Assembly (NCBI GenBank): GCA_963668025.2
Contig: CAXXTH010000018.1
Span: 128,001-192,000, forward strand
Source of the DNA: Candidatus Hydrogenedentota bacterium
Lineage (GTDB): Bacteria; Hydrogenedentota; Hydrogenedentia; Hydrogenedentales; SLHB01
Length of the DNA stretch: 64,000 nt
Reading direction: 5' to 3'
Shown here: piece after piece, positions 11,715 through 38,482 of the stretch
Position numbering within the stretch: the first letter of the stretch is position 1
Layout: each line of letters opens with the position of its first letter
Notes under the pieces: model-generated
The model's input: the letters and a program-made list of their open reading frames with translations, nothing else
Told to the model about the DNA's origin: nothing
Database searches by the model: none
Made by a program: the position numbers and the translations under genes

Positions 11715-11756
11715 GATTTTGAACCACGGGGAGCACGGGGCGGCACGGGGACCGGG
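11715..11756 (+). repeat. CACGGGG-type single-arm repeat; first 39 bp identical to 15849-15887
   Basis: gattttgaaccacggggagcacggggcggcacggggacc. Confidence 0.88.
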
Positions 11757-13081: not shown

Positions 13082-13101
13082 TGACGACATATCGGGTTTT
13101 C

Positions 13102-13136
13102 CACCGCAGAGGAGCACGGGGCAGCACAGGGAACGG
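13102..13136 (+). repeat. Degenerate CACGGGG-type repeat, junction 4
   Basis: caccgcagaggagcacggggcagcacagggaacggg. Confidence 0.75.
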
Positions 13137-13176
13137 GCAGTGCGGTTTATCGGACTGAAAAGTTTGGGAGGTGGAC

Positions 13177-14463
13177 ATGATGAGTGAGACTATGAAAGTC
13201 CGCCGTGTAGAACGGCTTCATACCTGCATGGCGTTTGGGTGGGGCGTCATGCGGTGCAATATAAAAACTTGGATACTCATAATTCTGCTAATGTTTATTC
13301 CAGCGAGATTCTTTGGTTTTTCTTTAGTTTCTTCCGCTAGTCTTGCCGTAGCTTTGGTCAACAGACTCATGAGAACACCGGGCACGGGTAATTCGCTGCA
13401 TATTCTCCCCATGAGCTTCACGGAAAAAGCCCGCGTATTCTGGGTTGAATCGGTGTTTTTCGTTCCGATGACATGGTTTGTCGTACAAGTCATCGAGCGA
13501 ATTTGCATCGGAGGATACTATACATGCCCAATCCTGTTTCTGGCTCAATTGACACTGGCAACCATGGGTCTGGCGTCGCTTTGCCATCTACCCTTTATTT
13601 ACCCTTTTTTTATCGCAGTTAATTCCCCCTATACCAAAAATCTTAAAGAACTCAATCCCATATTTTGGGCTTGTTTTTACGGTCTCGTTTTGCATGATGA
13701 GTCTCGGCGAATAGAAATCTGGTTCCATAGCCCATCCATATGGCTTGTGTTGGCGCTGGCGGTAGGAGTGACTGTATTTGCATATGTATTGCCAAAACGA
13801 ATCATACGCAGTGGAAAGAGGGGCGTGCGAAGTCCCCGGCCCGAGATCAGCCAGGCCCGTTTGTCAGGCGGCTTGCCTTTGAGTGCCAGCTCTTTTGGTG
13901 CTTTGGGCGTTTCTGTCAGAGCTTGTTGTCTCATATCGAGTTTTTTCGCATTTGGCCTTGTTTTTCTGCTATATACGTATAATCCAGAAGTCAAACGGGA
14001 CATATTTTCTAGCTCTATCATTTCCTTTGTATTCCCCGGCGTTGCGGGTATCTATTTGATGAATACATGGGGGAAAACAATCCGGGCTTTACGCGCCCTG
14101 CCTTTTGATCCGAACAGGCTTGTTCGATTCTATATCATGCTGATTGCACCTGCGGCGTGCCTTCTATTGTTCTGTGCTCTCTCTGCGTATGCATTTGGAC
14201 TTACGATGGTGCTGCCTTTTATCAAATACATTGTCTCCTATATTCTGTGGATTCCATTGCTCTACTCCCTTTCTCTCCGATTTGTCAAAGCTGGTGCGCC
14301 TCTTGTCAGCATATCAGTGTTTGCATGCTTTTTTGTTCCCAGCTTTGTTTTTAGTCCTCTCAGCATTATGTTATGGGCGCTAATCGGAATCGTCGGCTGG
14401 CTGTATCTACGATATAGCCTTATTAACAATAGCGTCATCTACCGGTCGCCGGCTAACCTATAG
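13177..14463 (+). CDS. Multi-TM ABC permease-like membrane protein 4
   Basis: GGGAGGT RBS; paralog of proteins 3 and 5; C-terminal NNSVIYRSPANL. Confidence 0.72.
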   Translation: MMSETMKVRRVERLHTCMAFGWGVMRCNIKTWILIILLMFIPARFFGFSLVSSASLAVALVNRLMRTPGTGNSLHILPMSFTEKARVFWVESVFFVPMTWFVVQVIERICIGGYYTCPILFLAQLTLATMGLASLCHLPFIYPFFIAVNSPYTKNLKELNPIFWACFYGLVLHDESRRIEIWFHSPSIWLVLALAVGVTVFAYVLPKRIIRSGKRGVRSPRPEISQARLSGGLPLSASSFGALGVSVRACCLISSFFAFGLVFLLYTYNPEVKRDIFSSSIISFVFPGVAGIYLMNTWGKTIRALRALPFDPNRLVRFYIMLIAPAACLLLFCALSAYAFGLTMVLPFIKYIVSYILWIPLLYSLSLRFVKAGAPLVSISVFACFFVPSFVFSPLSIMLWALIGIVGWLYLRYSLINNSVIYRSPANL

Positions 14464-14483
14464 TGACAGCATATCGGGTTTTC

Positions 14484-14518
14484 CACCGCAGAGGAGCACG
14501 GGGCGGCACGGGGAACGA
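14484..14518 (+). repeat. Degenerate CACGGGG-type repeat, junction 5
   Basis: caccgcagaggagcacggggcggcacggggaac; whole intergenic region nearly identical to junction 4. Confidence 0.75.
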
Positions 14519-14558
14519 GCAGTGCGGTTTATCGGACTGAAAAGTTTGGGAGGTGGAC

Positions 14559-15836
14559 ATGATGAGTGAGAACATGAAAAACCGCCGTGTAGAACGGCTT
14601 CATACCTGCATGGCGTTCGGCTGGGGCGTCATGCAGTGCAATATAAAAACTTGGATACTCATACTTCTGCTAATGTTCATTCCGGCGAAAGTACGGGGCT
14701 TTTCTATCATACAACCTGCCTTGTTTGCCGCCATTTTACCCACCATATTCATAGCAAAACCCGGAACAGGCCGTTCAGTGCGTACTTTACCAGTAAAATT
14801 TGATGAAATAAACCGCACATTTTGGACTATATCGGTACTTCTCGTACCCGTGGCATGGTTCATCATACAGGTTATCGAGCGTATCTGCATGGGCGAGCAG
14901 TATACCTACCCAATCCCTTTCCTGGCAGAATTAGCCCTGTCCGCCATAGGCCTCGCATCCCTTTTCTATATACTCATGGTTTTTCGACTGCTAATCTCGG
15001 TTCGGCCGTCCAAAGCAACAGAATCCTTTATAGCTTGCCAGATAGTCATGATTCTCTATTTTGGATCATCCGACTACTTATGGCGAATAGAAACTTGGTT
15101 TATTCCACCTATCACATGGCTAGTTCTGCCGGTATCATCAGTATTATGCGTGTATGCCTACGTATTTCCGAGGCGTCTCATGCGAGTAAGGAAGAATAGA
15201 GAAAAAGCTGCTCCACTTAAAATCAAACAAGCATGGGGTGCGGACGGCTTGCCTTGGAGAGCAAGGTGTTTGGGCGCTTGGAGCATTCCTCTCTGGACTT
15301 GCGGCTGCATACTAACCAATCTGACAGTTGGCTGCCTATGCTTCCTGTATATATGCAGTGCGCTAGTTCGTGAAAACGCGTTGCTTTGCTCCCTCGTTTT
15401 ATTCATGTCGTTTGGCGTGGCGGCTATGTTCATTATGCATACATGGGGGAAATCCGTGCGGGCGTTGCGAACTCTTCCTTATGGTCCAAACCGGCTTATC
15501 CAGTTCTACTCCATGCTCATTGCGCCTACGGCGTGTTTCCTAGTGGCGTGCGCCATCGCCGCCTACGCAGGTGGAATCCCCACGGTTCCTTTCATCAAAT
15601 CTGTTTTGGCCTTCATTGTTTGGATTCCGTTTCTGTATGCACTCTATTTCCGGCTGGGCAAAATCCGTACGCCTTTTGTCATGCTGGCCTTGATTGCATG
15701 TATTCTTGTTCCCTATTTCGCCTTCAATCTTTGGATCGCCACGTTATGGTTGTTGGCCGGAGTCGTCGGCTACCTGTATCTGCGGCATACGCTCATTCAC
15801 AATAGCGTCATTTATCGTTTGCCAGCCAATGAGTAA
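14559..15836 (+). CDS. Multi-TM ABC permease-like membrane protein 5
   Basis: N-terminus nearly identical to protein 4; C-terminal HNSVIYRLPANE. Confidence 0.72.
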   Translation: MMSENMKNRRVERLHTCMAFGWGVMQCNIKTWILILLLMFIPAKVRGFSIIQPALFAAILPTIFIAKPGTGRSVRTLPVKFDEINRTFWTISVLLVPVAWFIIQVIERICMGEQYTYPIPFLAELALSAIGLASLFYILMVFRLLISVRPSKATESFIACQIVMILYFGSSDYLWRIETWFIPPITWLVLPVSSVLCVYAYVFPRRLMRVRKNREKAAPLKIKQAWGADGLPWRARCLGAWSIPLWTCGCILTNLTVGCLCFLYICSALVRENALLCSLVLFMSFGVAAMFIMHTWGKSVRALRTLPYGPNRLIQFYSMLIAPTACFLVACAIAAYAGGIPTVPFIKSVLAFIVWIPFLYALYFRLGKIRTPFVMLALIACILVPYFAFNLWIATLWLLAGVVGYLYLRHTLIHNSVIYRLPANE

Positions 15837-15848
15837 AATGGATTTCCG

Positions 15849-15887
15849 GATTTTGAACCACGGGGAGCACGGGGCGGCACGGGGACC
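15849..15887 (+). repeat. CACGGGG-type repeat closing the permease array
   Basis: Exact copy of 11715-11753. Confidence 0.88.
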
Positions 15888-23465: not shown

Positions 23466-23533
23466 CCAGGCGCATGGACTCCCCGTTTCCCGGTGGGCGT
23501 CCATGCGTCTGGGCGGTTTTGTTTGGGGCATGG
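23466..23533. repeat. 68-bp hairpin-containing block identical to 29351-29418
   Basis: ccaggcgcatggac...gtccatgcgtctgg stem directly after the last beta-helix gene. Confidence 0.85.
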
Positions 23534-25048
23534 CTATTTTCTCATCCGCCGCGCACGCCATAGGGCAACGAGGAGGAGGCCGGTGAGGGCGGCTCCGGCG
23601 GCGAGGGGCAATATGGGCGGCGTGCTCGATGGATCGAGCGGATCCGTGCCGTATTGGATCTCGATGCCGTCGGGCACATGGTCACCGTCCGTGTCGGCCT
23701 TGTAGAGGTGGGTGTGATACGTGGTCCACTCGGTGTTGTTCGTGAGGCCGTCGCCGTCTGAATCCGCTTCCGGGTCGTACTCGTACGCGCCAAAATCGTA
23801 TTTTTCATTAATAGGGCGCGCCGTGCCCGCCAAATCGGGAGTAAAAAGCTCCGGCACGGTCGAGTAGAGCAGCTCATTTCCGTCTATGGCTGGGCTATCG
23901 GGCATCAGGCGGTAATCTCCGTGTTCCGCATCCACGAAATGAGGGTCGCCACTGAACAACACCCCCCATTGGCGATACACTCCCTGTTCGACCTTTACAG
24001 GCTCATCCCCGGCATCGGGCATCAAATTGGTCTCCGCGTTTATCTCGCCATACAAATATATCGTCGGCCCTTCCGGAGCCTGGTTGTTTATAAATGTGCA
24101 GTGAGAGACATTGTAAGTGTTAATCCATATCTCTGTCTGGGCATCTCTCGAAGAATGCAGCCAAAGAGCCCCGCCTTGTTCATCCGCTGCATTATCAATG
24201 AACAAGCAATTGGAAATTCCGCCGCCGCCAAACATATCTAGCGCACCTCCATATGCGGCGCTATTGTTACGAAAAATGCATCTGACAAAATAGCAGCTAT
24301 CCCCACATCGAGCCACTCCTCCATGCCCGTCTGAAGAAAGCGCCTTATTGTATTCAAAAATACAGTCATAAAAGGATGCTATCCCAGGCGCATCTTTCAC
24401 GCCACCCCAAGGCGCCTCGTTTTGTGTGAATTTTGTGTTTCTAACCGTTATCGTTCCACCACGTTGACCAATGGCCCCTCCCGCACTTGACGCTTGATTG
24501 TTTGTGAAAAGACAGTTGCGTATTTCCACTTGCGCGTATGCTTGAGTGCTTAGGCCTCCTCCGGATTTACCCAACGAACCCGAACCTGGTTTGTTTGCAA
24601 ATCCGCCAGTAATAGTAAATCCGTCCAAAATAGAATTATTTCCCGCATTGACAACCGAATATGCGGGAGAGCCTTGGAAGGATTTTGAACCATCTATTAC
24701 CGTGGATTCTGGCAGGATATCTCTCTCTTCAACGGAAGTCTCATCCCCGTTGAATCCACCAAATAACTGTATTTCATCGGACAATTTCAGACAGCCTGCC
24801 GGTATGTCTTGAATCATCCCGGTTCTTTCCTCATCATAGAAGCCTTTCGCAACCCAAACCTCACCCGCTCCCGAAACGCTAGCGGCATCAATTGCGGGCT
24901 GAATTGTTTTGAACGCCGTCTGCCACGACGTTCCATCCTCCACATCGGATAGGTTGTCTTTATCGACGTACCACACATCCGCTATGGCGGGTAGCGCGAC
25001 GATAAATGCACTCGAGAAGCATAGGCAGAGCAAAAGACGTTGGCTCAT
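23534..25048 (-). CDS. Secreted parallel beta-helix protein P5 with Ca-binding repeats and C-terminal sorting tail
   Basis: Signal peptide, VWYVD..W.TAF.TIQ.AI, GGA/N repeats, DPHF..DYRL..DSPAID...GAYE, DSDGDGL/GTDPLDP, tail LPLAAGAALTGLLLVALWRARR; GGAGG RBS, ATGA-coupled to P4. Confidence 0.85.
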   Translation of the reverse strand: MSQRLLLCLCFSSAFIVALPAIADVWYVDKDNLSDVEDGTSWQTAFKTIQPAIDAASVSGAGEVWVAKGFYDEERTGMIQDIPAGCLKLSDEIQLFGGFNGDETSVEERDILPESTVIDGSKSFQGSPAYSVVNAGNNSILDGFTITGGFANKPGSGSLGKSGGGLSTQAYAQVEIRNCLFTNNQASSAGGAIGQRGGTITVRNTKFTQNEAPWGGVKDAPGIASFYDCIFEYNKALSSDGHGGVARCGDSCYFVRCIFRNNSAAYGGALDMFGGGGISNCLFIDNAADEQGGALWLHSSRDAQTEIWINTYNVSHCTFINNQAPEGPTIYLYGEINAETNLMPDAGDEPVKVEQGVYRQWGVLFSGDPHFVDAEHGDYRLMPDSPAIDGNELLYSTVPELFTPDLAGTARPINEKYDFGAYEYDPEADSDGDGLTNNTEWTTYHTHLYKADTDGDHVPDGIEIQYGTDPLDPSSTPPILPLAAGAALTGLLLVALWRARRMRK

Positions 25049-26544
25049 CTCGCATACCTCCAACATTTCGTCTCATATATCCGCCATAAGGCTATGAATA
25101 AAAAGCTGATTAGTACGGCTCCGGCGGCAAGGGGAAGAATGGGCGGCGTGCTCGATGGATCGAGCGGATCCGTGCCGTATTGGATCTCGATGCCGTCGGG
25201 GACATGGTCACCGTCCGTGTCGGCCTTGTAGGGATGAGTGTGATAGGTGGTCCACTCCGTATCATTCGTGAGGCCGTCGCCGTCCGAATCCGCCTGCGGG
25301 TCGTATTCATACGCGCCGAAATCGTATTTTTCATTAATCGGGCGCACCGTGCCCGCCAAGTCGGGAGTAAAAAGCTCCGGCACGGTCGAGTAGAGCAGCT
25401 CATTTCCGTCTATGGCCGGGCTGTCGGGCATCAGGCGGTAATCTCCGTGTTCCGCATCCACGAAATGAGGGTCGCCACTGAACAACGTACCAAACCAATT
25501 ATACGCGCCTCGTTCCACCTTTACAGGCTCGTCTCCGGCATCGGGCATCAAATTGCTCTCCGCGTTCACCTGGCCATACAGATATATTGTAGGTCCCTCT
25601 GGAGCTTGGTTGTTGACAAATGTGCAATACAATATATTATGTGAGCCTATCCACCCTTCCGTTTGGGCATCTATACCGCAACTCAGACTTAATGCTCCTC
25701 CCTTTTCATCAGCTACATTGCCAATAAACATACAATTCTCCACTAGACTTGTGGAGTATATCTTTAATGCCCCACCAATAGCAGCATGATTCTCCCGGAA
25801 AATACAACGTACAAACTTAGGTTGCCAGTTTGTCGAACCTCCTGCATAGGCTCCCCTATTTTTCTCAAAAACGCAGTCATAGAAGTCGGCGTCTCCACTT
25901 GCACCTACCGCATCGTTACTTCGGAAGATGCAGTTACGCACTTCCAATATGGATTGCAAGTTGACTGCTGAACGACCTTCGGCTGCCTGATTGCCCTCAA
26001 ATATACAGTTGTTGACATGACTAACGAAGACCTCTCTATTTGCCTCAGTCAGCAAAGCCGCCCCGGAATAGCCCCATTCCCGGGCGTCTCCTCCCGTAAC
26101 CGTGAATCCGTCGATTGTGGAGTTTGCGCTGAGGAACACCACACATATGGCTGGTTGTCCATCAAGTGCATTAGAGCCATCAATTATGGACCTAGACGCT
26201 CCTGACGACCTTTCAGGATGTTCCAGCTCATTTCCTACAAATCCGCCGTAAAGTGATACATTCTCATGTACCATGAGCGAACCGGTCACTACTTGATCAT
26301 ATTGATAATACAAAACCCCATTTCTTGTTTCATTATAGTTGCCTTCCGCCACCCACACTTCTCCGCCTCCATCTGCTTCAGCGGCATCAATCGCGGGCTG
26401 AATTGTTTTGAACGCCGTCTGCCATGATGCTCCATTTTCCACTCCCGATAAGCTGTTTATGTCAACATACCAAACATCCGCTGCGCTGTGAAGTCCGAAA
26501 AGAGCAGCGGTTATCATACTTATCCCTATCTGTCTACAGTTCAT
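25045..26544 (-). CDS. Secreted parallel beta-helix protein P4
   Basis: Same architecture; GGAGGA RBS before ATG 26544; tail variant LPLAAGAVLISFLFIALWR. Confidence 0.85.
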   Translation of the reverse strand: MNCRQIGISMITAALFGLHSAADVWYVDINSLSGVENGASWQTAFKTIQPAIDAAEADGGGEVWVAEGNYNETRNGVLYYQYDQVVTGSLMVHENVSLYGGFVGNELEHPERSSGASRSIIDGSNALDGQPAICVVFLSANSTIDGFTVTGGDAREWGYSGAALLTEANREVFVSHVNNCIFEGNQAAEGRSAVNLQSILEVRNCIFRSNDAVGASGDADFYDCVFEKNRGAYAGGSTNWQPKFVRCIFRENHAAIGGALKIYSTSLVENCMFIGNVADEKGGALSLSCGIDAQTEGWIGSHNILYCTFVNNQAPEGPTIYLYGQVNAESNLMPDAGDEPVKVERGAYNWFGTLFSGDPHFVDAEHGDYRLMPDSPAIDGNELLYSTVPELFTPDLAGTVRPINEKYDFGAYEYDPQADSDGDGLTNDTEWTTYHTHPYKADTDGDHVPDGIEIQYGTDPLDPSSTPPILPLAAGAVLISFLFIALWRIYETKCWRYAR

Positions 26545-26802
26545 GGTAGGAATCCTCCATTCAGAAAATTCTGGCCACAGATCAGTATTGCTCGTACCAG
26601 AAATAGTATTCCCCAATAGAAGGAGTAGGCACTTCATCCGCACCTATGTCTCGTTCTTCATCGATGAGGTATGGACTCGCGTAGATCTCAGGCATAGTGA
26701 TGTTACCCAACGGGTAGGAATCTCTTGGCGCGACGGAATGATCAATGTCGAAGTAGGTAGTCGCGCCGTATACATTGCGCTCTGTATCATGATAAATAAT
26801 TG

Positions 26803-28330
26803 GTAACACTTTAGCCGTCTGGCGCAACTATAAGTAGCGTTTCGGTATAATATAGTTACAAGATGTTGTGGTTTTGGGCCAAGACGCCATGGCGACGGCA
26901 ATAAGTGGCATTCCATTGGGACCGCTGCTCTCGGAGGAGCAAGCCCGAGCGATCTACGCATTGGGCGAAGATGCCGTGGTGTTTGCCCTGTTGGCGCAAT
27001 CCAAGCTGCTGTCGGAGCAGCAGGCCGAGGCGGCGTTCACTTCCCACCAAACGCCCTCCACCCCTTCGGGCATGCAGCCAGTTTACGGGAAACCCCAGAC
27101 GCCTGTGCGCGGCAAGAAAAAGCCGGGACGCAAGATGGGCCACCCCGGCAGCCGGCGCGTGCCGCCCGAACGTATCGACCGGCGTGAAACACACCGCACC
27201 AAGGTGTGTCCCGACTGCGGCGGGCCGCTGGACCGCCGCGCGGAGACCCGCACGCGCTACACCGAAGACATACCCGAAGGCATCCGTCCGGAAATCACCG
27301 AGCATACCATTCACCGCGACTGGTGTCCGCGATGCAAGAAGAAAGTCGAGCCGGTTGTGGCGGCGGCCTTGCCGGGCGCGACCCTGGGCAACCGGGTGCT
27401 GGTCCTCAGCGCGTGGCTGCACTATGTGTTGGGCAACACGCTTTCGCAAATCGTGGAGGTCTTCGATTTCCACCTGCTTTTCCAGGTCACGCCGGGCGGG
27501 CTGCTGCACATGTGGCGCAGGCTGGCGGAGATTCTCCTGCCTTGGTACGAGGCCATTCACCAGGAAGCGCTGGACTCGGCGGTGCTCAACGCCGACGAGA
27601 CCGGCTGGCGCGTGAATGGCAAGACCCGATGGCTGTGGTGTTTCGCCACCAAAGGGCTGAGCTTTTTCCTGATCGACCATTCGCGGGGGAGTCCGGCGCT
27701 CCAGCAGTTCTTCACGCGGGAATTCGCCGGAACGCTGGTGGCCGACTTCTGGGCCGCGTACAACGCCGTGGCGTGCGCCGCCCGGCAGAAGTGCCTCGTG
27801 CATTTGTTGCGCGAACTCGAGCACGTGGAGAAATACAAATCGCCCAGCCCGGCCTGGCCCGCCTTCGCCAAAAAGCTGCGCCGCCTGATTGCCGACGCCA
27901 TCCGGCTGTGGCGGCGGCGCGGCGAGCTCGAACCGGAGGCGTACGACTCGCGCCGCGCGCGCTTCGCCCGGCGCTTGCGGGACTTGTGCGATACGCCCTG
28001 GGAGGACGCCAACGCCAAGCGCCTCATAAAAAGGCTGCGCCGACACCAGGATGAACTCTTCACTTTTCTCGGCCAATCAGATGTTCCCTTCGACAACAAC
28101 TTGGCGGAACGCTCCATCCGTCCTGCCGTTATCCTGCGCAAAAACAGTTACTGCAACCGCAGCGACCAAGGAGCCGCCATACAAGCGGTGCTCATGAGCG
28201 TCTTCTTTACTTTGAAAAAACGCGGGCAAAACCCCGTCTGCACCGTCTGCAACGCCCTGGTCCACTACCTCAACACCGGCCAATTGCCTCCCCTGCCACC
28301 GGAAAACACTTCAGTCGGCTAAAGTGTTAC
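26803..28330 (+). mobile_element. IS66-family element, single-ORF (ISBst12-like organisation), 1528 bp
   Basis: Terminal inverted repeats GTAACACTTTAGCCG at both ends; 8-bp target duplication AATAATTG (26795-26802 and 28331-28338). Confidence 0.95.
26868..28322 (+). CDS. tnpA: IS66 family transposase
   Basis: CPDCG/CPRC zinc finger, NADETGWRV, QKCLVHLLR, DNNLAERSIR. This is the TnpC-type DDE enzyme; no accessory ORFs are present. Confidence 0.93.
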   Translation: MVLGQDAMATAISGIPLGPLLSEEQARAIYALGEDAVVFALLAQSKLLSEQQAEAAFTSHQTPSTPSGMQPVYGKPQTPVRGKKKPGRKMGHPGSRRVPPERIDRRETHRTKVCPDCGGPLDRRAETRTRYTEDIPEGIRPEITEHTIHRDWCPRCKKKVEPVVAAALPGATLGNRVLVLSAWLHYVLGNTLSQIVEVFDFHLLFQVTPGGLLHMWRRLAEILLPWYEAIHQEALDSAVLNADETGWRVNGKTRWLWCFATKGLSFFLIDHSRGSPALQQFFTREFAGTLVADFWAAYNAVACAARQKCLVHLLRELEHVEKYKSPSPAWPAFAKKLRRLIADAIRLWRRRGELEPEAYDSRRARFARRLRDLCDTPWEDANAKRLIKRLRRHQDELFTFLGQSDVPFDNNLAERSIRPAVILRKNSYCNRSDQGAAIQAVLMSVFFTLKKRGQNPVCTVCNALVHYLNTGQLPPLPPENTSVG

Positions 28331-29284
28331 AATAATTGTATACCCCCGATCGATGCACGACGACATGGGATCCGTGTCAAGATGCAGGAAATCATGGAAA
28401 TTCGTGCCATCGAAGGACTGGGTGATAAACCCGGGGCCATTTGCGTCGCCTATGCAACCGCTATGATTGGCGCCTACTAGAGTCGTGAGGTTTTGTATCG
28501 TGTAGCAATTTCTGATGTTCGTGGTTGAAGGGACCCCAAGATCATCATACGCGTATGTAGTGCTGTCACTATTATCCCAGAAGATAAAGTTCGTGATCCC
28601 GTTCACGCCGTTAGGGCCTTCATCGGTTCCATAACTATCATATATGGCCCCGCCCTCTCCATATGGCCCGTTAGCGGTGTTGGACACGAACGTGTTTTGT
28701 TTTAGTTTCAACGGATAATAATACGACATTGCTCCACCCGTTGTGTAAGCATAAATGACCTCATTTTTCCAGAACATGTTACTCATGATGGTGTTTCCAT
28801 TGCACATATCCATCGCGCCGCCGCCACCGTAGACACTAGCGCTACGGTTCTTGATAAACCAGTTCGATAGAATGAAACCATGGCGTGTGTCGCCTGCGGT
28901 CACGGTATCTCCGCAATAGGCCAGCGCCCCGCCGGAACTTGCCTGGTTACACCAGAAAATGTTCAGCCTGATGATCCCGTCGCAATCGTAGCACGCCCCG
29001 CCCGCGCCACTGGCGATATTGCTGGAAATCCAAGACTCATTGACATCATATGCGCCGAAGACATTGCGGTCGATGATGCCGTCCACGTTGTTGATGCATG
29101 CGCCATTGCCGGAAATGCTGTTGTTAATGAACTTGCAGTACATGATGGAGGCCTCGCAGCCATTACCCGCGATGCCGCCGCCATAGGCATACGCCGAATT
29201 CTTCTGAATCGTGAACCCTTGCAGCGAACAATCCCAGTTTTCCGTCCCACTGAACGTGACCGCACGGCCATTGTTGGCGGAGTT

Positions 29285-29323
29285 TAACCACGGGGACACG
29301 GGGCGGCACGGGGATATTTTGGG
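29285..29323 (+). repeat. CACGGGG-type repeat abutting the 5' end of the headless cassette
   Basis: taaccacggggacacggggcggcacggggatattttggg; same family as 11715 and 15849. Confidence 0.85.
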
Positions 29324-29350
29324 CGATGATTTTAGTCGATGCCCAAACGC

Positions 29351-29418
29351 CCAGGCGCATGGACTCCCCGTTTCCCGGTGGGCGTCCATGCGTCTGGGCG
29401 GTTTTGTTTGGGGCATGG
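29351..29418. repeat. 68-bp hairpin-containing block identical to 23466-23533
   Basis: Direct comparison of the two copies. Confidence 0.85.
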
Positions 29419-30918
29419 CTATTTTCTCATCCGCCGTGCACGCCATAGGGCAACGAGGAAGAGGCCGGTGAGGGCGGCTCCAGCGGCGAGGGGCAATATG
29501 GGCGGCGTGCTCGAGGGATCGAGCGGGTCCGTGCCATATTGGATCTCGATGCCGTCGGGGACATGGTCGCCGTCCGTGTCGGCCTTGTAGGGATGAGTGT
29601 GATAGGTGGTCCACTCCGTATCATTCGTGAGGCCATCACCGTCCGAATCCGCCTGCGGGTCGTATTCATACGCGCCTAGGTCGTAGTTCGCACCGAGGGG
29701 ACGTTGCGTGCCCGCCAAGTCAGGGGTATAAATTTCGGGAACATTTGTGTCCAGGCCATTCGCATCAATGGCAGGGCTGTCGGGCATGAGCCGGTAGTCA
29801 CCGTTCTCCGGATCGGCAAAATGGGGATCAATGTAGAGCACGCCAGTCTGATTAAGCTCGCTCACCGAATAGGTGCCGCTCGTTAATTTAAAGGGTTCAT
29901 CCCCGGCGTCCGGCACTAGATTATTCTGCGCATTCACAACTCCACGGAGGTACAAAACCGGCCCTTCCGGAGCTTGGTTGTTGATAAAGGTGCAGTGATC
30001 GACGGTATGGGAGCCCGCCCAGGTCTCCAATTGGACGTTTTCTCCTGAACTCAGGTACAACGCGCCGCCTTTTTCATCGGCCACATTATCTATGAATAGG
30101 CAACCGATGATGGCGCTAGCAAAGTGTATACCTAAGGCGCCGCCAATCGTGGCATGGTTGCCTCGAAAAATACAACGAATAAAAAGGGGCGCCGCTGCTT
30201 TGTTTGGAGAACCTCCTGAGTAAGCTCCATTATTATTCTCAAAAATGCAGTCATAGAAATAGGAGTTTCCGCTCGCACTTCTTGCATTGTTATTTCGGAA
30301 AAAACAGTTGCGGACGTTCACGATGGACCCAAGACCAACTGCCGAATGACCGTCGATTGCGTGATTTTCTTCAAAGATACAGTTTTCAATGACAATACCA
30401 ATGTCGTAATCGCTGCTTTTCGTTGTTAATGCCGCTGGCGGATCTTTAAACTCCCGAGAGTCTCCTCCCGTAATGGTGAATCCATCGATTGTGGAGTTCG
30501 CGTCGAGATAGACCACGCATGCGGCCGGCTTTCCCTCCAGCGTGTTGGAGCCATCAATTATGGTTTTGTAGAGAGAAAGAGACCGCTCGGAACGAGCGGC
30601 CTCCGTTCCCGAAAATCCGCCATAGAGGGCGATGCCTTCATATACCATGAGCGTGCCCGTTTCGACTTCGTCGTAACGGACAGAGGTGCCTCTTCTTGGC
30701 TCATTGTAAACGCCTTCCGCCACCCACACTTCTCCGCCGCCATCTGCTTTAGCTGTATCAACGGCAGGCTGAATGGTTGTGAAGGCTGTTTGCCACGTCG
30801 TTCCATCCTCCACGCCAGAATGGTTGTCTTTATCGACGTACCAGACATCCGCTATGGCATGCAGTGCGAAGGTGGAAACAAACAGGTAAAGCATGCAGTT
30901 CGAAATGCGCAGTATCAT
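29419..30918 (-). CDS. Secreted parallel beta-helix protein P3
   Basis: Same architecture and LPLAAGA tail; AAGGAGG RBS. Confidence 0.87.
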   Translation of the reverse strand: MILRISNCMLYLFVSTFALHAIADVWYVDKDNHSGVEDGTTWQTAFTTIQPAVDTAKADGGGEVWVAEGVYNEPRRGTSVRYDEVETGTLMVYEGIALYGGFSGTEAARSERSLSLYKTIIDGSNTLEGKPAACVVYLDANSTIDGFTITGGDSREFKDPPAALTTKSSDYDIGIVIENCIFEENHAIDGHSAVGLGSIVNVRNCFFRNNNARSASGNSYFYDCIFENNNGAYSGGSPNKAAAPLFIRCIFRGNHATIGGALGIHFASAIIGCLFIDNVADEKGGALYLSSGENVQLETWAGSHTVDHCTFINNQAPEGPVLYLRGVVNAQNNLVPDAGDEPFKLTSGTYSVSELNQTGVLYIDPHFADPENGDYRLMPDSPAIDANGLDTNVPEIYTPDLAGTQRPLGANYDLGAYEYDPQADSDGDGLTNDTEWTTYHTHPYKADTDGDHVPDGIEIQYGTDPLDPSSTPPILPLAAGAALTGLFLVALWRARRMRK

Positions 30919-30946
30919 GTGCTAAACCTCCTTTTACAATGTATGT

Positions 30947-32440
30947 CTACATTTGTTGCTTCATCCGCCGCGCACGCCATAGGGCAACGAGGAGGAGGCC
31001 GGTGAGGGCGGCTCCGGCGGCGAGGGGCAAGATGGGCGGGGTGCTCGATGGATCGAGCGGGTCCGTGCCATATTGGATCTCGAGGCCGTCGGGGACATGG
31101 TCACCGTCCGTGTCGGCCTTGTAGGGGTGGGTGTGATACGTGGTCCACTCGGTGTTGTTCGTGAGGCCGTCGCCGTCTGAATCCGCTTCCGGGTCGTACT
31201 CGTACGCGCCAAAATCGTATTTTTCATTAATCGGGCGCGCCGTGCCCGCCAAGTCAAGTAACACAAATTCCGGATCGGTGTTTTCGAGATCATTTGAATC
31301 AATAGCCGGACTGTCAGGCATAAGACGGTAATCACCGTTTTCCGGATCCGCAAAATGGGGATCACCATTAAATAAACTGCCAAACCAGTGATATTCACCC
31401 TGTTCGACGGTAACGAGTTCATTTTCGGCGCTGGAAATCAAATTGTTCTCGATGTACAACAGTCCATACAGATACACTGTGGGCCCTTCCGGAGCTTGAT
31501 TATTCACGAATGTACAATGAGATATGTCGTGGGAACCTATCCACCCTCCTGTTTGGGCATCTGTTCCATTGTTCAGCCTTAAAGCTCCACCTTGTTCTTC
31601 TGCTGTATTACTTACAAAAAGGCAATTGGACACATGGCTGCCATTGGTAAGCCTCAATGCTCCGCCTTCTACGGCGTGATTGCCTCGAAAAATGCAGCGA
31701 ACAAACATCGGCGACCAATTGGTGGAGCCTCCTACGTAAGCGCCTTTGTTATTCTCAAAGACGCAGTCATAAAAGGAAGCATCTCTTTCCGCACCTAATG
31801 CGCTGTTGTTTCGAAATATGCATTTACGCACTTCCACAATAGACAAAAAGCTCACCACCGCTCCAGTTCCGTCGGACTTATTATTCTCGAAAATGCAGTT
31901 GCTAATATTAATGTTGTCTTTTTTGCGTGCCGTTAGTATCGCCGCTCCTGACCTGCCCAATGAGTTATGGGGATCAATCGATCGGGCGTATCCACCTGTA
32001 ATGGTAAACCCATCAATTGTCGTAGTTGCGTCAAGAAAAACAACACATGCGGCGGGTTCTCCCGAAAGCGACGTAGAGCCATCAATTATAGACTTATGTA
32101 ATGCGGGAGCTCTTGCATCACGTTCGGTTTCATCTCCTGCAAAACCGCCGTAAAGCGATGCATTCTCATGCACCATGAGAGAACCTGTCGCTACTTCGTC
32201 ATACAGAACTCCATTTCTCACTTCATTATAGTTACCCTCGGCCACCCATACTTCTCCGCCGCCATCTGCTTTAGCTGTATCAACGGCAGGCTGAATGGTT
32301 GTGAAGGCCGTCTGCCACGACATTCCATCCTCCACGCCGGAATGGTTGTCTTTATCGACGTACCACACATCCGCTATGGCGGGTAGTGAAAAGATGAAAA
32401 CAAACAGGTAAAGCATGCAGCTCGAAATGCGCAGTATCAT
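30947..32440 (-). CDS. Secreted parallel beta-helix protein P2
   Basis: Same architecture; N-terminus and upstream spacer nearly identical to P3. Confidence 0.87.
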   Translation of the reverse strand: MILRISSCMLYLFVFIFSLPAIADVWYVDKDNHSGVEDGMSWQTAFTTIQPAVDTAKADGGGEVWVAEGNYNEVRNGVLYDEVATGSLMVHENASLYGGFAGDETERDARAPALHKSIIDGSTSLSGEPAACVVFLDATTTIDGFTITGGYARSIDPHNSLGRSGAAILTARKKDNINISNCIFENNKSDGTGAVVSFLSIVEVRKCIFRNNSALGAERDASFYDCVFENNKGAYVGGSTNWSPMFVRCIFRGNHAVEGGALRLTNGSHVSNCLFVSNTAEEQGGALRLNNGTDAQTGGWIGSHDISHCTFVNNQAPEGPTVYLYGLLYIENNLISSAENELVTVEQGEYHWFGSLFNGDPHFADPENGDYRLMPDSPAIDSNDLENTDPEFVLLDLAGTARPINEKYDFGAYEYDPEADSDGDGLTNNTEWTTYHTHPYKADTDGDHVPDGLEIQYGTDPLDPSSTPPILPLAAGAALTGLLLVALWRARRMKQQM

Positions 32441-32468: not shown

Positions 32469-33965
32469 CTACATTTGTTGCTTCATCCGCCGCGCGCGCC
32501 ATAGGGCAACGAGGAGGAGGCCGGTGAGGGCGGCTCCGGCGGCGAGGGGCAAGATGGGCGGGGTGCTCGATGGATCGAGCGGGTCCGTGCCGTATTGGAT
32601 CTCGAGGCCGTCGGGGACATGGTCACCGTCCGTGTCGGCCTTGTAGGGGTGGGTGTGATACGTGGTCCACTCGGTGTCATTCGTGAGGCCGTCGCCGTCC
32701 GAATCCGCCTCCGGGTCGTATTCATACGCGCCTAGGTCGTAGTTCGCACCGAGGGGACGTTGCGTGCCCGCCAGGTCTGGGTTATAAAGCTCGGGCACAC
32801 CGGTATCCAAGCCATTGGCGTCAATCGCCGGGCTGTCAGGCATAAGACGGTAGTCCCGATTTTCTGGATCAACAAAGTGAGGATCTATGTAGAGAACTCC
32901 TGACTGCTCAAACCTACTCAATTCATATTTTCCGTCTGTTAATTTTACAGATTCATCACCGGCATCGGGCATCAAATCATTCTGTGCATCCACAACTCCA
33001 TAGATATACATAACTGAACCTTCTGGAGCTTTATTATTGATGAACGTACATTGGCTGACATGATGAATGCCAGCCCATCCCTCCCATTGAATGTTTTCTT
33101 CTGAACGAAGATACAGGGCACCCCCTTTCTCGTCAGCAATATTGTCTACAAAAACACAATTGAATACCGCACTATTCGGAAATAAACTCAGGGCACCACC
33201 TTTCGCGGCATGGTTACCTCGAAAAATACATCGAATAAACATAGGTTGCCAATTTGTCGAACCTCCCGCATAAGCTCCTTTATTATTCTCAAAAACGCAG
33301 TCATAAAAGGAAGAGTCTCCGCTCGCACCTAACGCATCGTTGTTTCGGAAGATGCAGTTACGTACCTCTAATATGGATTGCAGGCGAACTGCTGACCGGT
33401 CTTCGTTTGCTTGATTACCCTCAAATATGCAGTTATTGATATGAATAATGTAAACATCTTGATCTGCTTCGGTCAGCAAAGCCGCCCCCGAATCGCCCCA
33501 TTCACGTGCGTCTCCTCCCGTGATAGTAAACCCGTCAATTGTTGCGTTCACACTGACAAAAACTACACAAACGGCTGGCTTCCCTTCGAGCGCGTTGGAG
33601 CCATCGATTATGGTATTGTATAGAGAAGGAGACCGCTCCGCGCGAGCGGCCTCCTTTCCCGAAAATCCACCATAAAGCGGGATTCCTTCATGCACCATGA
33701 GCGTTCCCGTCTCGACTTCGTCATATCGGACAGAGGTGCCTCTTCTAGGCTCATTGTAAACGCCTTCCGCCACCCACACTTCTCCCTTGTAATCCTCCAC
33801 GGCGGCATTTATGGCTGGTTGAATAGTTGTGAACGCTGTTTGCCATGTCGTTCCGTCCTCCATGCCGGATTGGTTGTCTTTATCAACATACCACACGTCC
33901 GCCATACCTGGAATAGCAGCTAAACACATTAACCCTATTATCAAACCCACATGCATGTATCGCAT
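32469..33965 (-). CDS. Secreted parallel beta-helix protein P1
   Basis: Same architecture; GGAGGA RBS before ATG 33965. Confidence 0.87.
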   Translation of the reverse strand: MRYMHVGLIIGLMCLAAIPGMADVWYVDKDNQSGMEDGTTWQTAFTTIQPAINAAVEDYKGEVWVAEGVYNEPRRGTSVRYDEVETGTLMVHEGIPLYGGFSGKEAARAERSPSLYNTIIDGSNALEGKPAVCVVFVSVNATIDGFTITGGDAREWGDSGAALLTEADQDVYIIHINNCIFEGNQANEDRSAVRLQSILEVRNCIFRNNDALGASGDSSFYDCVFENNKGAYAGGSTNWQPMFIRCIFRGNHAAKGGALSLFPNSAVFNCVFVDNIADEKGGALYLRSEENIQWEGWAGIHHVSQCTFINNKAPEGSVMYIYGVVDAQNDLMPDAGDESVKLTDGKYELSRFEQSGVLYIDPHFVDPENRDYRLMPDSPAIDANGLDTGVPELYNPDLAGTQRPLGANYDLGAYEYDPEADSDGDGLTNDTEWTTYHTHPYKADTDGDHVPDGLEIQYGTDPLDPSSTPPILPLAAGAALTGLLLVALWRARRMKQQM

Positions 33966-34012: not shown

Positions 34013-37000
34013 TTATAAGTCTTCGTACCAGAAATTATACTCGCCTGTAGGTGGCGTAGGAGCTTCATCCGCTCCTATATCACGATCAAACAAGTTGTTC
34101 TGTATAGGAGCTTGTGCAGGCACTCCCTCTGCACCGTCTCTTGGAGCGACGGAATGGTCAATATCAAAATAGGTGTAAATATAACCTGTTTCTGCATCGT
34201 AAGGAGTAAATCCCCTGTCCACGCATGGTGACGCATAGTCAGGAACCCCATCATCATCGCTATCCGGTCCAATCATGAGATGCAGGAAATCATGGAAATT
34301 TGAACCGTTAAATGTCTGTGTGACGAAGCCAGGTGTGGCATATGCAACAGGATCCACCCATGGACCGATTGTAGTCCCCCAATACACAATTTCTAGACCG
34401 GAGGCATCGAGATCCTGTTCGGTGAAGCAGTGCCCAAGTGACTCTGTTGAAGAAGATAAGTAGACATCTTCCCAATCAGGTGCGTCGTTCTGCCAGTAGA
34501 TGCAATTCATTTGATTGTCATAATCAACGCCATAACTATACGCCGCGCCTCCACCTTCAGCCGTCGCGGTGTTCTCCACAAAGGTGTTTTGTTGAAGATA
34601 ACAAGGAGTGCAGCCGCTCATTCCTCCTCCATCCGAATACCAACCTTCTGCTTTGTTTTTCCATAAGATATTGCCCGAAATCAGATATCCATTGCAGTTT
34701 GCCATGCCGCCCCCGCCGCCAGTCGGATAAATGATCTTATTTTTGATAAACCAATTACAGGTGATGTAGCCATTGTAACGATCATTTGTAGCGCCAGTAT
34801 CACCGCAATACGCCAATGCGCCGCCATAACTCGCTTGGTTGCACCAGAATATGTTCAGCCGGATAATCCCGTCACAATCGTAGCACGCCCCACCCGCGTC
34901 GCTGGCGATATTGCTGGAGGCCCAAGACGCGCTCGAATCATACGCACCGAACACATTGCGGTCGATAATGCCGTCCACGTTGTTTATGCACGCTCCGCTC
35001 CCGGAGATGCTGTTGTTGATGAACTTGCAGTACATGATGGAGGCATCACAGCCATTTCCCGCGATGCCGCCGCCGTAGGCGTACGATGAATTCTTTTGAA
35101 TCGTGAAGCCCTGCAAAGAGCAATCCCATGTCTCGGTTCCGCTGAAGGTTACCGCCCGGCCATTGTTGGCGGAATTTTGGATAAATGTACGATTACGCAC
35201 ATCCGTACGATAGAGATTGTAGGGTTCAGCAGAACGAATAACCAGATTCTTACCTCCGAAATTGATGGCGCTGTACGTTCCAGGCCTGACTTCAATAATA
35301 TCACCAGCAGTGGCCGCATTGATGGCGGATTGTATGCCCGAGGCGCCGTTGAAGTCGATGTCGTCGCCTGCAGTAGGAGCTACTGTCCAGAGATGGCCTT
35401 GTCCGGGATCCTGGTCCGCGCCTTGAGGCCTGCAACCCTGATATACACTGCCGCGAATGAACAAGGAGCCTCTCGGCGCCGTGAGCGTTTGATGAGGCGA
35501 ATTCGGATTTGTATATTGTAGTCCATTAACAGTGGTAATATATCCTACAATAGTATTCGCGTCATCCCGGAAGACATGTGCTGAACCAGGCGGTGAGGGG
35601 AAATTGTACTGTGTATTGAAATCTTTTACGACTTGGCCCGCCAAATAGAGCACGGGGAAGGGAGGCTTCGCCGGATCCCATGCTTTTGCGGAATAAGAAG
35701 GGCACAGGGCAGCAACTGGCGTATTATCCGACGCACGGACGGTGAAAAGAGGTGAATCGCCCGCCGCGGAAGTTACACAAGTCGAGTTCTCATCGATTTT
35801 TCCATCAATATACAGGCCAATATAGGTATGCTCCGAATCTATATGATCGAGTGGCCGGAGCAATGTGTTTCCTTTTCCGTCGTCGCTGGCAACGGCGGAG
35901 CCAATGATGGACATGATATTCCGGACTCCGCTAGCTCCGGGAGCGCGGCAATCGTCCGGAATGGTACTGTTATAACCGTCTTGAATATGCTTAGCCAGTT
36001 TGACAGCTCCGTACATGTTGATCATGCCCCATCCCGTGTATTTGTTCGGATGGGTGGTGGCGTGATCAAAACGCCTCTGATCATTGGCCAGCCAATCCTG
36101 TTCCGTGGAATCCGGCCAATACACATTGTACGGTGATGGGTTCCAAACACCATACCGATAGGGATACAAAGGGTTGTTTACATCCGTAATGCTGTAATCA
36201 TATTTCAGCGGCAGTGCGCTCAGTTTCATGAGCCATTCGATCTCGGTGGGGGAAAGGGCGGGATTCTTGGTGAGCATAAGCGCCGCGAGACCCACTCCAG
36301 CGGGAGCGGTGTTCGAGTTAGAAGCATTCAGTTTAACCTGGAATATTTCATCGGCATTGTCACCAGGATCATATAGTTTCAAATACATTGTAGCAGTTCG
36401 ATAATCATAATCGTTTTGACCATTCGGTATAAAATCCTCGTCAAAATTAGGGATACTGCCAGGCCGATTTGGGTCTCCAGCCGCCATCACATCGATAATG
36501 CTGCCATAACTTGAGCCCATACCGGCGGTCATGAACCGGCTTCGCCTGCCTTTGGCGTCTCCAGCGCTTAAAATGATCATCTCATTAAAGCTCTGGGGAA
36601 AATAGGGATGTGCGTCCATATCGACATTGTAATTGGCACACCAGATCACCGTGACGCCCCGGGCGCGCGCCAGCAAAATGGCTTCATACAATTCAGGATC
36701 ATAAGTTTGGGAAAAGGTGCATAAGGAAAGGATATGAGCGATATCGCCCAATTCCATTGCCGAGTAATTGGCGAATTGATACTGCCCTACAGTGGAATCG
36801 CGTTCTCCTATCGCGTAACGAATACCATCAACCACTAAAGCTGGATAATGGATATTGGATTCGTTCAGTACTGCTTCAGAAAAATCCCATGTATTGTAAT
36901 GATATCGAATGGGCATTATCTCAGCACTAGGACAAAGCCCGACACTTTCGGTGCCATCCATATTATCCAAGTCTGCCGGATCTGGATTATTGAAAGGCCT

Positions 37001-38482
37001 TGCTGCTTCGATGACTGCTGCAGCGAATCCATGTCCTCGTAAGGAATTAGCCACGTACCATCTAGAGTAATCTGAAAAGGGAATAGCATCTCCATCTGGA
37101 AAATCCGGATCTGTTCCGACAAAATCCCATCCAAATATATCTTTAGCTCCGGCGTTATATGCCTTGATGTTAAACCATTGGTTGGGCGTAAGGTCAGGAC
37201 AGCCCGCTTTATAGAGGGAAAAAGCATTTGCATATTCAGGACCTGTAAGTTGCATATTATCGTTTTGCACTGGAACCCATGCGGCATTATAAGGGTGATA
37301 TGGCGGGCTTAGGCTGGGCTGCAGATTATAGTATTGTCCTCGGTAAAAATGATTCGCTTGTTCATAATCCAAGGGCACGCCATCGTCTAGCGAAGCGATG
37401 ATGGTTTTTGGATAATTCTGCCACCATGCATTGCCCGTCGGCCAACTGCTTCCATACACCTCTGTCCACGCTTTGACTGCATTCATGTGGTTCGCATCCC
37501 AATACCACCGAACAGGCTTAGGAGCAGGCCGCTCCGTGTCTACGAATTGTTCATCTGTTGGAGCTGGGATGTCCGTCTGCGTCTTGTATAGCGGCGCGAA
37601 CACGGGGGCGGCGGCTTTCACGAGGCCGCTGCGCTGATACTTGTTGGCGTAGTCGTTGGTGAGAAGGGGGAAACCGGAGGCGTCCACCGCGCGGGCGTGG
37701 TAGGGGATGCGGATGCGGTAGGTGACCGAGCCTATCTCCTTGTAGTCCACCCGTTTAAGGATTTCGGCTCCGTCTTCGGCGAAGAGCGCCAGTACTTTTT
37801 CTTCATTGTCGTCTTTCCGAATAACAACGGTGAGCATTTCGGTCATAAGTGACTTCATCTCGGTGCCGCAGGTCCAGGCGGTCATGACGGCATCGACATC
37901 GTCCCGTTTGCTTAGTTCGGCGACTAAGGTGCGGATATCGTCTTTCGTTTTCGCGCCGGAGACTTTCATGACGGCCGCGCCGTTGAAGTTGATGTCCATC
38001 GGGATAAGTGTATCGCCCACTTGGACATAGGAGCTTTTATCCTGTACCGCGTCCGCCTTCAGGGCGAGTTCGCCCGCGCGGGCCTTGGCCTGTTCGCCGG
38101 AAACGATTTTATCGGCGGTGATGGCCGTGAGGCGGGCGTCGCTATTGAGAAATTGGACCACCTCTTCAACCCGTTTTTTTTCACGAAATGAAACGCCGAT
38201 GGTGTCCGTACACATCTCGATGGGGACGCGCTTGCCCTGCCATCCATAATAGTAGGGGCCGATATCCTCCTCTTCCGGGGCGAACATGGCGCGGGTTTCG
38301 GCGCGGCGCTGCTCGATTTCCTCGCGCGTGAGGGCGGCAGGGGCTTGCGAATCGTTGGAACTGGTGAATTCTGTAGGAGTTATGCTTTCGGTGGATTGGG
38401 CGGAAATGGGGGATTCATTGATGATGAATCCCAGGCAGACAACCAGAACGACACTTAAGACGGACCACACGATACGGCGCAT
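34013..38482 (-). CDS. Large secreted protein: prodomain, divergent S8 (subtilase-like) domain and C-terminal beta-helix
   Basis: Signal peptide; IIASLDDG, DIFGWDF, RGHG, AEIMPIR, SSYGSIIDVMAAG, SNSNTAPAGVGLAALMLTKNP, TGWGMIN; then IQSAINAATAGDIIEVRPGTY and GGG/N beta-helix repeats. Confidence 0.8.
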   Translation of the reverse strand: MRRIVWSVLSVVLVVCLGFIINESPISAQSTESITPTEFTSSNDSQAPAALTREEIEQRRAETRAMFAPEEEDIGPYYYGWQGKRVPIEMCTDTIGVSFREKKRVEEVVQFLNSDARLTAITADKIVSGEQAKARAGELALKADAVQDKSSYVQVGDTLIPMDINFNGAAVMKVSGAKTKDDIRTLVAELSKRDDVDAVMTAWTCGTEMKSLMTEMLTVVIRKDDNEEKVLALFAEDGAEILKRVDYKEIGSVTYRIRIPYHARAVDASGFPLLTNDYANKYQRSGLVKAAAPVFAPLYKTQTDIPAPTDEQFVDTERPAPKPVRWYWDANHMNAVKAWTEVYGSSWPTGNAWWQNYPKTIIASLDDGVPLDYEQANHFYRGQYYNLQPSLSPPYHPYNAAWVPVQNDNMQLTGPEYANAFSLYKAGCPDLTPNQWFNIKAYNAGAKDIFGWDFVGTDPDFPDGDAIPFSDYSRWYVANSLRGHGFAAAVIEAARPFNNPDPADLDNMDGTESVGLCPSAEIMPIRYHYNTWDFSEAVLNESNIHYPALVVDGIRYAIGERDSTVGQYQFANYSAMELGDIAHILSLCTFSQTYDPELYEAILLARARGVTVIWCANYNVDMDAHPYFPQSFNEMIILSAGDAKGRRSRFMTAGMGSSYGSIIDVMAAGDPNRPGSIPNFDEDFIPNGQNDYDYRTATMYLKLYDPGDNADEIFQVKLNASNSNTAPAGVGLAALMLTKNPALSPTEIEWLMKLSALPLKYDYSITDVNNPLYPYRYGVWNPSPYNVYWPDSTEQDWLANDQRRFDHATTHPNKYTGWGMINMYGAVKLAKHIQDGYNSTIPDDCRAPGASGVRNIMSIIGSAVASDDGKGNTLLRPLDHIDSEHTYIGLYIDGKIDENSTCVTSAAGDSPLFTVRASDNTPVAALCPSYSAKAWDPAKPPFPVLYLAGQVVKDFNTQYNFPSPPGSAHVFRDDANTIVGYITTVNGLQYTNPNSPHQTLTAPRGSLFIRGSVYQGCRPQGADQDPGQGHLWTVAPTAGDDIDFNGASGIQSAINAATAGDIIEVRPGTYSAINFGGKNLVIRSAEPYNLYRTDVRNRTFIQNSANNGRAVTFSGTETWDCSLQGFTIQKNSSYAYGGGIAGNGCDASIMYCKFINNSISGSGACINNVDGIIDRNVFGAYDSSASWASSNIASDAGGACYDCDGIIRLNIFWCNQASYGGALAYCGDTGATNDRYNGYITCNWFIKNKIIYPTGGGGGMANCNGYLISGNILWKNKAEGWYSDGGGMSGCTPCYLQQNTFVENTATAEGGGAAYSYGVDYDNQMNCIYWQNDAPDWEDVYLSSSTESLGHCFTEQDLDASGLEIVYWGTTIGPWVDPVAYATPGFVTQTFNGSNFHDFLHLMIGPDSDDDGVPDYASPCVDRGFTPYDAETGYIYTYFDIDHSVAPRDGAEGVPAQAPIQNNLFDRDIGADEAPTPPTGEYNFWYEDL

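Follow-up and report, generated by a model that had tools for sequence, protein, structure and literature searches.

Here, we focus on a truncated gene copy in a 64,000-nucleotide (nt) stretch of DNA from a Candidatus Hydrogenedentota bacterium (contig CAXXTH010000018.1, positions 128,001 to 192,000; in the following, the window). On the minus strand at 26582-29284, the window carries a 5'-truncated copy of the last part of a co-oriented upstream gene, which encodes a subtilase-like (S8-like) protein of 1489 amino acids (aa). This copy, here called the cassette, is split by an insertion sequence (IS) and followed by genes of its own for surface proteins (P genes). We consider it moderately probable that the cassette is an orphaned C-terminal module, i.e., the end, once translated, of a full-gene sister copy or allele, which was stranded recently and would by now be silent and inert. 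The original prediction, made from the sequence alone, described it as a silent alternative C-terminal cassette. This description holds for the anatomy, as a 5'-truncated C-terminal beta-helix copy lies downstream in the same orientation with its own P genes, and is not supported for the maintained recombination handle that it includes. All relevant genes, i.e., the full gene, P1-P3, the cassette, P4 and P5, are carried by the minus strand. The parts on which the argument rests are:

34013-38482, minus strand: full gene, 1489 aa, S8-like; the protease-like gene of the expressed unit
34013-35176, minus strand: full-gene tail matching the cassette (residues 1103-1489), a predicted right-handed beta-helix
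34796-35176, minus strand: counterpart of the conserved block in the full gene
28331-29284, minus strand: 5' part of the cassette, 318 codons from NSANNGRAVTF (E 6.3e-107 to the full gene)
28904-29284, minus strand: conserved head block, the first 127 cassette codons (381 nt)
26803-28330, plus strand: IS66-family insertion sequence, 1528 base pairs (bp), with the transposase open reading frame (ORF) at 26868-28322 (484 aa)
26795-26802 and 28331-28338: the two copies of the 8-bp target-site duplication CAATTATT
26582-26802, minus strand: 3' part of the cassette with FDIDHSVAPRD, RDIGADE and FWYE; stop codon at 26582-26584

Excision of the IS and one target copy leaves a minus-strand frame that is open from 29284 to 26582 and comprises 388 codons plus stop, while its counterpart in the full gene from NSANNGRAVTF (residues 1103-1489) has 387 codons plus stop. 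The stop-free restored frame of the original prediction, given there as 389 against 388 codons, is reproduced in this way. Likewise, homology to the full gene starts abruptly at NSANNGRAVTF, with neither a signal peptide nor a protease domain in the cassette. The sequences upstream of 29284 and of 35176 show no similarity in DNA or protein comparison, and a search of the genome returned no further trace of residues 1-1102, the N-terminal part of the full gene. Within the genome, the similarity between cassette and full gene (E 6e-107) is far above chance, and in a tree of 14 tails the two are sisters with a support of 100/100. In windows of 30 residues, the proteins share 0.97, 0.90, 0.87 and 0.93 of their positions across residues 1-120 and 0.10-0.57 thereafter; the diverged middle and the retained anchors NFHDFLHL, FDIDHSVAPRD, RDIGADE and FWYE are all found as originally described. 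The genome contains one cassette only.

The coding history of the cassette argues for long translation and a short silent phase. Both copies have been under strong, long-lasting purifying selection, with a ratio of nonsynonymous to synonymous substitution rates (dN/dS) of 0.037 in the head block. The same comparison for the variable part, suggested as a check along with the original prediction, shows that synonymous sites outside the head block are saturated (proportion of synonymous differences, pS, 0.83; of nonsynonymous differences, pN, 0.34). All 11 indel events between cassette and full gene are in frame, and of the 59 residues that do not vary among five full-length members of the family the cassette has kept 54, at an overall identity of 60%. 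With a 190-aa fragment as outgroup (P0106, from an 834-bp contig that offers no gene context), 14 changes in 162 alignment columns are specific to the cassette and 18 to the full gene (p 0.60). Signs of a decaying pseudogene are missing from the cassette: it has no stop, no frameshift and no relaxed constraint, and apart from the truncation and the IS it is undamaged. In simulated neutral drift, the frame stays open in 314 of 4000 runs after 0.05 substitutions per site and in 30 of 4000 after 0.1; cassette and full gene, by comparison, differ in 16% of their DNA within the block and in 44% outside it. An open frame is thus improbable after a drift of 0.05-0.1, and the silent phase must be short relative to the divergence. 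Judged from these sequence comparisons, the cassette appears to have been translated coding sequence for nearly its whole history, and silence since its origin seems to be ruled out unless selection reached the cassette by another route. The fragment P0106 was also considered as a sign that a cassette-type tail had been imported. It carries some cassette-specific motifs and is equally far from both copies (48% and 45%), and this origin was rejected.

The original prediction took the conserved 5' block for a recombination handle through which the cassette could swap the expressed tip or donate sequence by gene conversion. A related rival explanation holds that the tail and its P genes are kept by selection as a silent cassette, which would either take the place of the tip and P1-P3 or mend the tip through conversion, and that the IS is a recent accident. 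We regard this as a serious but rather unlikely alternative. The claimed near-identity of the first ~120 codons is true of the protein (92%) and not of the DNA (84%; 83.7% over the 381 nt once the cassette head is aligned with the full-gene block). Identity at codon positions 1, 2 and 3 is 95, 94 and 62%, and the Nei-Gojobori estimates are pS 0.60, dS 1.19 and dN 0.044. No identical run exceeds 26 nt, and ~23 nt are expected by chance at such identity; recent gene conversion in the block is thereby ruled out, and the handle is not borne out. In Salmonella LT2, an Rhs orphan was shown experimentally to recombine through 522 bp at 95% identity, according to the available text of that study (PMC3967940). 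The head block is a poor recombination handle because it is conserved as protein only, with third positions at 62% and a dS of ~1.2. Its likeness thus appears to reflect protein constraint and not DNA kept for recombination, and the last exchange of DNA within it is old. Outside the block, there is only one identical run of 23 nt, at the FDIDHSVAP anchor. A swap of the tip by recombination would indeed fuse the N-terminus to the cassette tail and delete P1-P3, as predicted, but with a diverged handle and an IS-split cassette such recombination would, as things stand, be inefficient at best.

The P genes show what frequent exchange looks like in the same locus. The last ~80 codons of the five P genes, i.e., the TSP3 repeat and the anchor, are 89-99% identical as DNA, whereas their centers are a mosaic with 45-82% identity, and this pattern indicates that ongoing conversion or unequal crossing-over acts on the 3' ends. 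Conversion is thus clearly active in the locus, yet it has left the head block untouched in recent times. Frequent use of a selected silent cassette should homogenize its handle as it does the P-gene ends, and a dS of ~1.2 is observed instead; moreover, there is a single cassette only.

The 5' edge of the cassette points to a mobile element. The following parts lie between the full gene and the cassette or behind it:

32469-33956, minus strand: P1, expressed unit
30947-32440, minus strand: P2, expressed unit
29419-30918, minus strand: P3, expressed unit
29351-29425, minus strand: 75-nt element with a strong hairpin, which includes the stop codon of P3 and lies between this gene and the cassette
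29286-29314, minus strand: solo end of a dispersed repeat resembling a miniature inverted-repeat transposable element (MITE), with three CCCCGTG units
25045-26544, minus strand: P4, intact and with a strong Shine-Dalgarno site; the first P gene behind the cassette and the positional counterpart of P1
23534-25048, minus strand: P5, following P4 in the downstream unit as its second P gene

Homology to the full gene begins 0-4 nt from the end of the repeat at 29286-29314. The core of this repeat occurs in 29 copies in the 6.1-Mb genome, which form eight inverted pairs spanning 152-174 bp (e.g., G000:C23:214198-214354 and C9:35948-36100) and 13 solo ends; the element is MITE-like, its terminal inverted repeats carry the three CCCCGTG units at a spacing of ~10 nt, and a transposase partner was not identified. 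Since homology begins at a repeat end that is absent from the full gene, the edge looks like the deletion product of a mobile element and not like a designed boundary. This weighs against a selected cassette, as the 5' edge is set by the end of a mobile element and not by a conserved motif. A site-specific swap through the edge repeat was rejected as well, as the motif (at up to 3 mismatches) occurs once in the window and not at all in the full gene. Two further repeat ends lie in the window at 11722-11751 and 15856-15885, and three tandem ORFs of 424-430 aa (11807-15836, plus strand) are found between two solo CCCCGTG repeat copies.

The interruption of the cassette is recent. The IS is bounded by perfect 15-bp terminal inverted repeats (GTAACACTTTAGCCG) and the direct 8-bp target duplication (CAATTATT), and its ORF matches DDE_Tnp_IS66 (E 2.8e-42) and zf-IS66; transposase, terminal inverted repeats and the length of the duplication all place it in the IS66 family. 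It has a single ORF and lacks the accessory genes tnpA and tnpB; presumably it resembles the one-ORF ISBst12 group. Eleven other copies in the genome are 99-100% identical to it and one is 94% identical, so that the IS is active and its insertion into the cassette recent. Perfect 8-bp target duplications flank five of the eight other copies examined; their absence from the remaining three suggests rearrangements between copies, and the near-identical copies point to a recent burst.

Taken in this order, the observations suggest the following course of events for an orphaned module. Until recently, the 1489-aa gene would have had a translated sister copy or allele, followed by P4 and P5. This copy would then have lost its N-terminal ~1100 codons together with start and signal peptide, with the break at the end of the MITE-like repeat behind the P3 hairpin, and an active IS66-family element would subsequently have landed in the cassette tail. 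The conserved head and the anchors would stem from protein constraint on the first beta-helix rungs and the tail motifs, combined with one old recombination breakpoint near codons 108-127.

Several findings weigh against this course of events, and most of them come from relatives. A tail profile search over 135 genomes of the phylum found the tail family in 10, among them a Hydrogenedentota metagenome-assembled genome (G009) related at the family level; a scan of contigs returned five loci, three of them from G009. No tandem pair of full-length copies was seen in the 10 carrier genomes, whose contigs are mostly short. G009 has seven tails, two of which are orphans in the layout full gene, P gene, orphan, P gene: the orphan on contig C259 is an open frame of 438 codons (L020:12278-13591), and that on contig C287 is a frame of 375 codons (L023:2113-3237), with its full gene continuing from contig C22. 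In the tree of 14 tails, each of the three orphans is sister to its own upstream full gene (100/100, 100/99 and 84/84). Moreover, all three start close to the beta-helix head (within ~60 residues) and have open frames despite deep divergence, and three independent recent truncations at nearly one place are not parsimonious. The C22/C287 pair further contains a tract of ~180 nt that is ~98% identical over a background of 72%, and within it 92, 42 and 24 nt are identical without interruption, as against an expected 17 nt. In the window itself, identical residues share the identical codon in 69 of 113 cases in the head block and in 45 of 108 in the rest (Fisher p 0.0047). A maximum chi-square scan places a change at cassette codon 108 with a value that 30 of 2000 permutations reach, and the family tree gives the cassette a branch only 2.3 times as long as that of the full gene (0.48 and 0.21).

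Several of these findings favor a selected silent cassette. Its layout of a full gene, partners, and a start-less truncated tail with partners of its own is that of the cdiA-CT and rhs-CT orphans as presented in the accessible parts of PMC3150448 and PMC3967940. G009 has this layout in two further places, both with an intact frame, every orphan groups with the neighboring full gene as its sister, the starts cluster at the beta-helix head, and purifying selection on the cassette is at full strength. The tract shared by C22 and C287 appears to be a fresh conversion tract, judging from its identical runs, and the contig break lies within it (L017/L023; end of G009 C22 and positions 1-3237 of C287). 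It implies that exchange occurs in the tail family; the C259 pair, at 61% identity and with no identical run above 14 nt, lacks one. Since the chance expectation for an identical codon is 0.39-0.41, the rest of the cassette is fully saturated, and the less diverged synonymous sites of the block together with the breakpoint at codon 108 indicate that an old recombination or conversion ended near the 3' edge of the block. Set against these points are the diverged handle, the mobile-element edge and the split by the IS, and no protein that joins an S8 part to the cassette tail was found in the searches described below, for an organism that is barely sampled. Remnants of an S8 part upstream of the orphans are found neither here nor in the G009 spacer. 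As further observations on these relatives, both G009 orphan loci share a two-hairpin element after the upstream P gene, and decayed tail remnants lie beside damaged P genes in two other genomes (G014 and G075), which speaks for an orphaned module.

A second rival takes the cassette for an independently expressed small gene, whose tail-only protein has just been knocked out by the IS. Some relatives favor it. At the exact point where their homology sets in, both G009 orphans have a start codon behind a Shine-Dalgarno-like motif (a GTG that follows GGGAG by 8 nt and an ATG that follows AGAGG by ~5 nt), and the 619-aa protein P0046 consists of a beta-helix and tail without an S8 part. A tail-only subtype with an inserted domain of ~150 aa before the conserved tail lacks the S8 part as well; its short frames, each followed by a P-like gene, lie in G014 and on three metagenome contigs:

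L024:8403-9377: tail-only subtype, G014
L033:527-1621: tail-only subtype, metagenome contig
L034:369-1289: tail-only subtype, metagenome contig
L035:367-876: tail-only subtype, metagenome contig

Purifying selection on the cassette equals that on the full gene, and a gene caller predicted a 356-aa protein (P0001) from it. The local signals argue otherwise. The six real genes of the locus have Shine-Dalgarno sites of the GGAGG type 6-9 nt before the ATG, whereas the in-frame ATGs upstream of the cassette (29416 and 29389) have none, and a small gene would also lack a signal peptide. The interval between P3 and the cassette holds no sigma-70-like site. The cassette follows directly on the strong hairpin (z-score -3.7 for a folded stretch of 156 nt). 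Its ATG at 29416 belongs to the 75-nt element (29351-29425), which recurs with 100% identity at 23466-23540, behind P5 and without any tail after it. A fusion to P3 by frameshifting or reinitiation was also considered, as the frame is open from 29614 and an ATG lies 2 nt after the P3 stop; it was set aside for the same reason and for want of a parallel in G009. Structure prediction adds that the fragment begins too late. In the AlphaFold model of residues 1040-1489, model residues 7-300 form a right-handed beta-helix (predicted local distance difference test score, pLDDT, 83-94) and the last 145 residues are of low confidence; the cassette starts at model residue 64, so that the cap helix and three initial strands are missing from it, and on this model would not be a complete domain or fold unit. 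The small gene thus suits G009 better than this genome, for which we consider it improbable.

Recombinant alleles, which the original prediction proposed to look for as an S8 N-terminus joined to the cassette tail, were not found in thin sampling, in which no genome of the same genus was among those compared. Among 1.84 billion representative proteins there are 443 matches at E <=1e-3, none of which exceeds 50% identity beyond the window's own two, and among the longer proteins of 5.8 billion clusters only the full gene of the window is close; the two proteins of the window each form a one-member cluster, so that sampling is thin. A scan of JGI metagenomes with the cassette gave no match, and one with the tail profile gave three short contigs, all of the tail-only subtype. 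Logan contigs of four runs from two studies, with no RNA data set listed, support the reference arrangement, with the full gene covered unbroken. They contain neither a joint of 34796-35176 to 28904-29284 nor an IS-free joint, although such contigs drop rare variants and are thus no evidence of absence. This also bears on the idea that the cassette is an assembly artefact or a chance similarity. The locus is rich in repeats (five P paralogs, the IS and MITE-like ends) at which short-read contigs break. However, one Logan contig of run X1 extends unbroken from 28303 to 29380 and thereby crosses both the repeat end and the cassette start, others span the full gene, and with a similarity of E 6e-107 we give this explanation hardly any weight. 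As a separate observation, two runs of one sample contain a P3-to-P2 joint (30741 to 32227), with just 25 nt on its shorter side.

The parent protein combines a protease-like part with a family-specific tail. The 1489-aa protein has no Pfam match at E 0.01, and its sub-threshold mycosin match (E 5e-8) reaches 32 bits against a cut-off of 279; its full-length relatives are clear S8 proteins, four of which pass PF00082 with E 1e-21 to 1e-26. D366, H484 and S723 are invariant in the family alignment and align with the catalytic triad. The context of the aligned catalytic serine differs from the usual G-T-S, and the protease may have degenerated or diverged strongly. A fold search with the tail model yields generic right-handed beta-helix matches only (best E 1.9e-3, template modeling score, TM, <=0.34), a search of PDB sequences with the whole protein gives no match, and no toxin family of Pfam or NCBIfam matches in the tail. 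The P proteins are beta-helix proteins of ~500 aa, each equipped with a signal peptide, a choice-of-anchor-Q domain, a TSP3 repeat and, at the C-terminus, a hydrophobic anchor. A complex prediction for the tail domain with P1 scores 0.01 against a mark of 0.32, which counts neither for nor against binding.

Among known systems, the orphans of Rhs and CdiA loci come closest, as far as the available text of PMC3150448, PMC3967940 and PMC5361080 describes them. In both cases, a 5'-truncated, co-oriented C-terminal copy lies downstream, lacks signals for translation initiation and export, has a conserved piece at its head and is followed by one or more genes of its own, and recombination with the main gene would load the tail and delete the genes in between. 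On the descriptions in these sources, the differences are equally clear. The cassette tail is a beta-helix without a toxin domain and its partners are surface proteins, not immunity proteins; the handle has 84% instead of ~95% identity, and a VENN or PxxxxDPxGL-type motif is lacking. Its 5' edge is the end of a mobile element, and no loaded tail was found. Finally, main gene and orphan are closest relatives here, whereas the orphans there are unrelated imported modules. With neither a near-identical handle nor toxin/immunity content, the cassette at most works like the Rhs/CdiA families and is not a member of them.

Antigenic variation from silent cassettes is known from pilE/pilS of Neisseria, vlsE of Borrelia and the MgPa repeats. 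The cassette resembles these systems as a promoterless partial copy of a surface gene, in which conserved and variable segments alternate and which could donate sequence by conversion. In contrast, it is single and not part of an array, its likeness to the full gene is at the protein level only, and population variants are missing from the contigs of the four runs; its orientation and distance would lead to deletion and not to non-reciprocal conversion. With a truncated paralog or pseudogene, it shares the lost start, the repeat-defined edge and the interruption by an IS, but it has no stop, frameshift or excess of replacement changes, and its layout recurs in G009. The subtilase autotransporter Ssp, in the accessible account of PMC9977779, joins an S8-type protease region to a right-handed beta-helix as the parent gene does. 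Compared with that account, the beta-helix here is C-terminal to the protease, the tail is specific to the family, an autotransporter barrel is missing, and the S8/beta-helix tail family is confined to few genomes of the Hydrogenedentota type.

Above all, the cassette illustrates that a partial copy with a conserved head and a diverged tail can stem from protein constraint and truncation by a mobile element. Protein identity alone greatly overstates the potential for recombination, as 92% protein identity here stands against 84% in DNA, with synonymous sites near saturation. A selected cassette role of the stretch is possible, though unproven. More broadly, and with considerable doubt, S8/beta-helix loci might be the non-toxin counterpart of polymorphic toxin loci: the variable tip and its P partner or partners would form a module, start-less spares would be stored and exchanged by conversion or replacement, as suggested by the ~180-nt tract of G009, and the cassette would be one such spare, recently disabled by the IS. 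Stored orphan C-terminal modules have so far been described for toxin/immunity loci (Rhs, CdiA, MafB and type VI secretion system [T6SS] effectors). If the same were true of a non-toxic surface protease or adhesin and its partner surface proteins, in a phylum that has hardly been studied, surface variation through stored modules would be more widespread in kind than these loci suggest.

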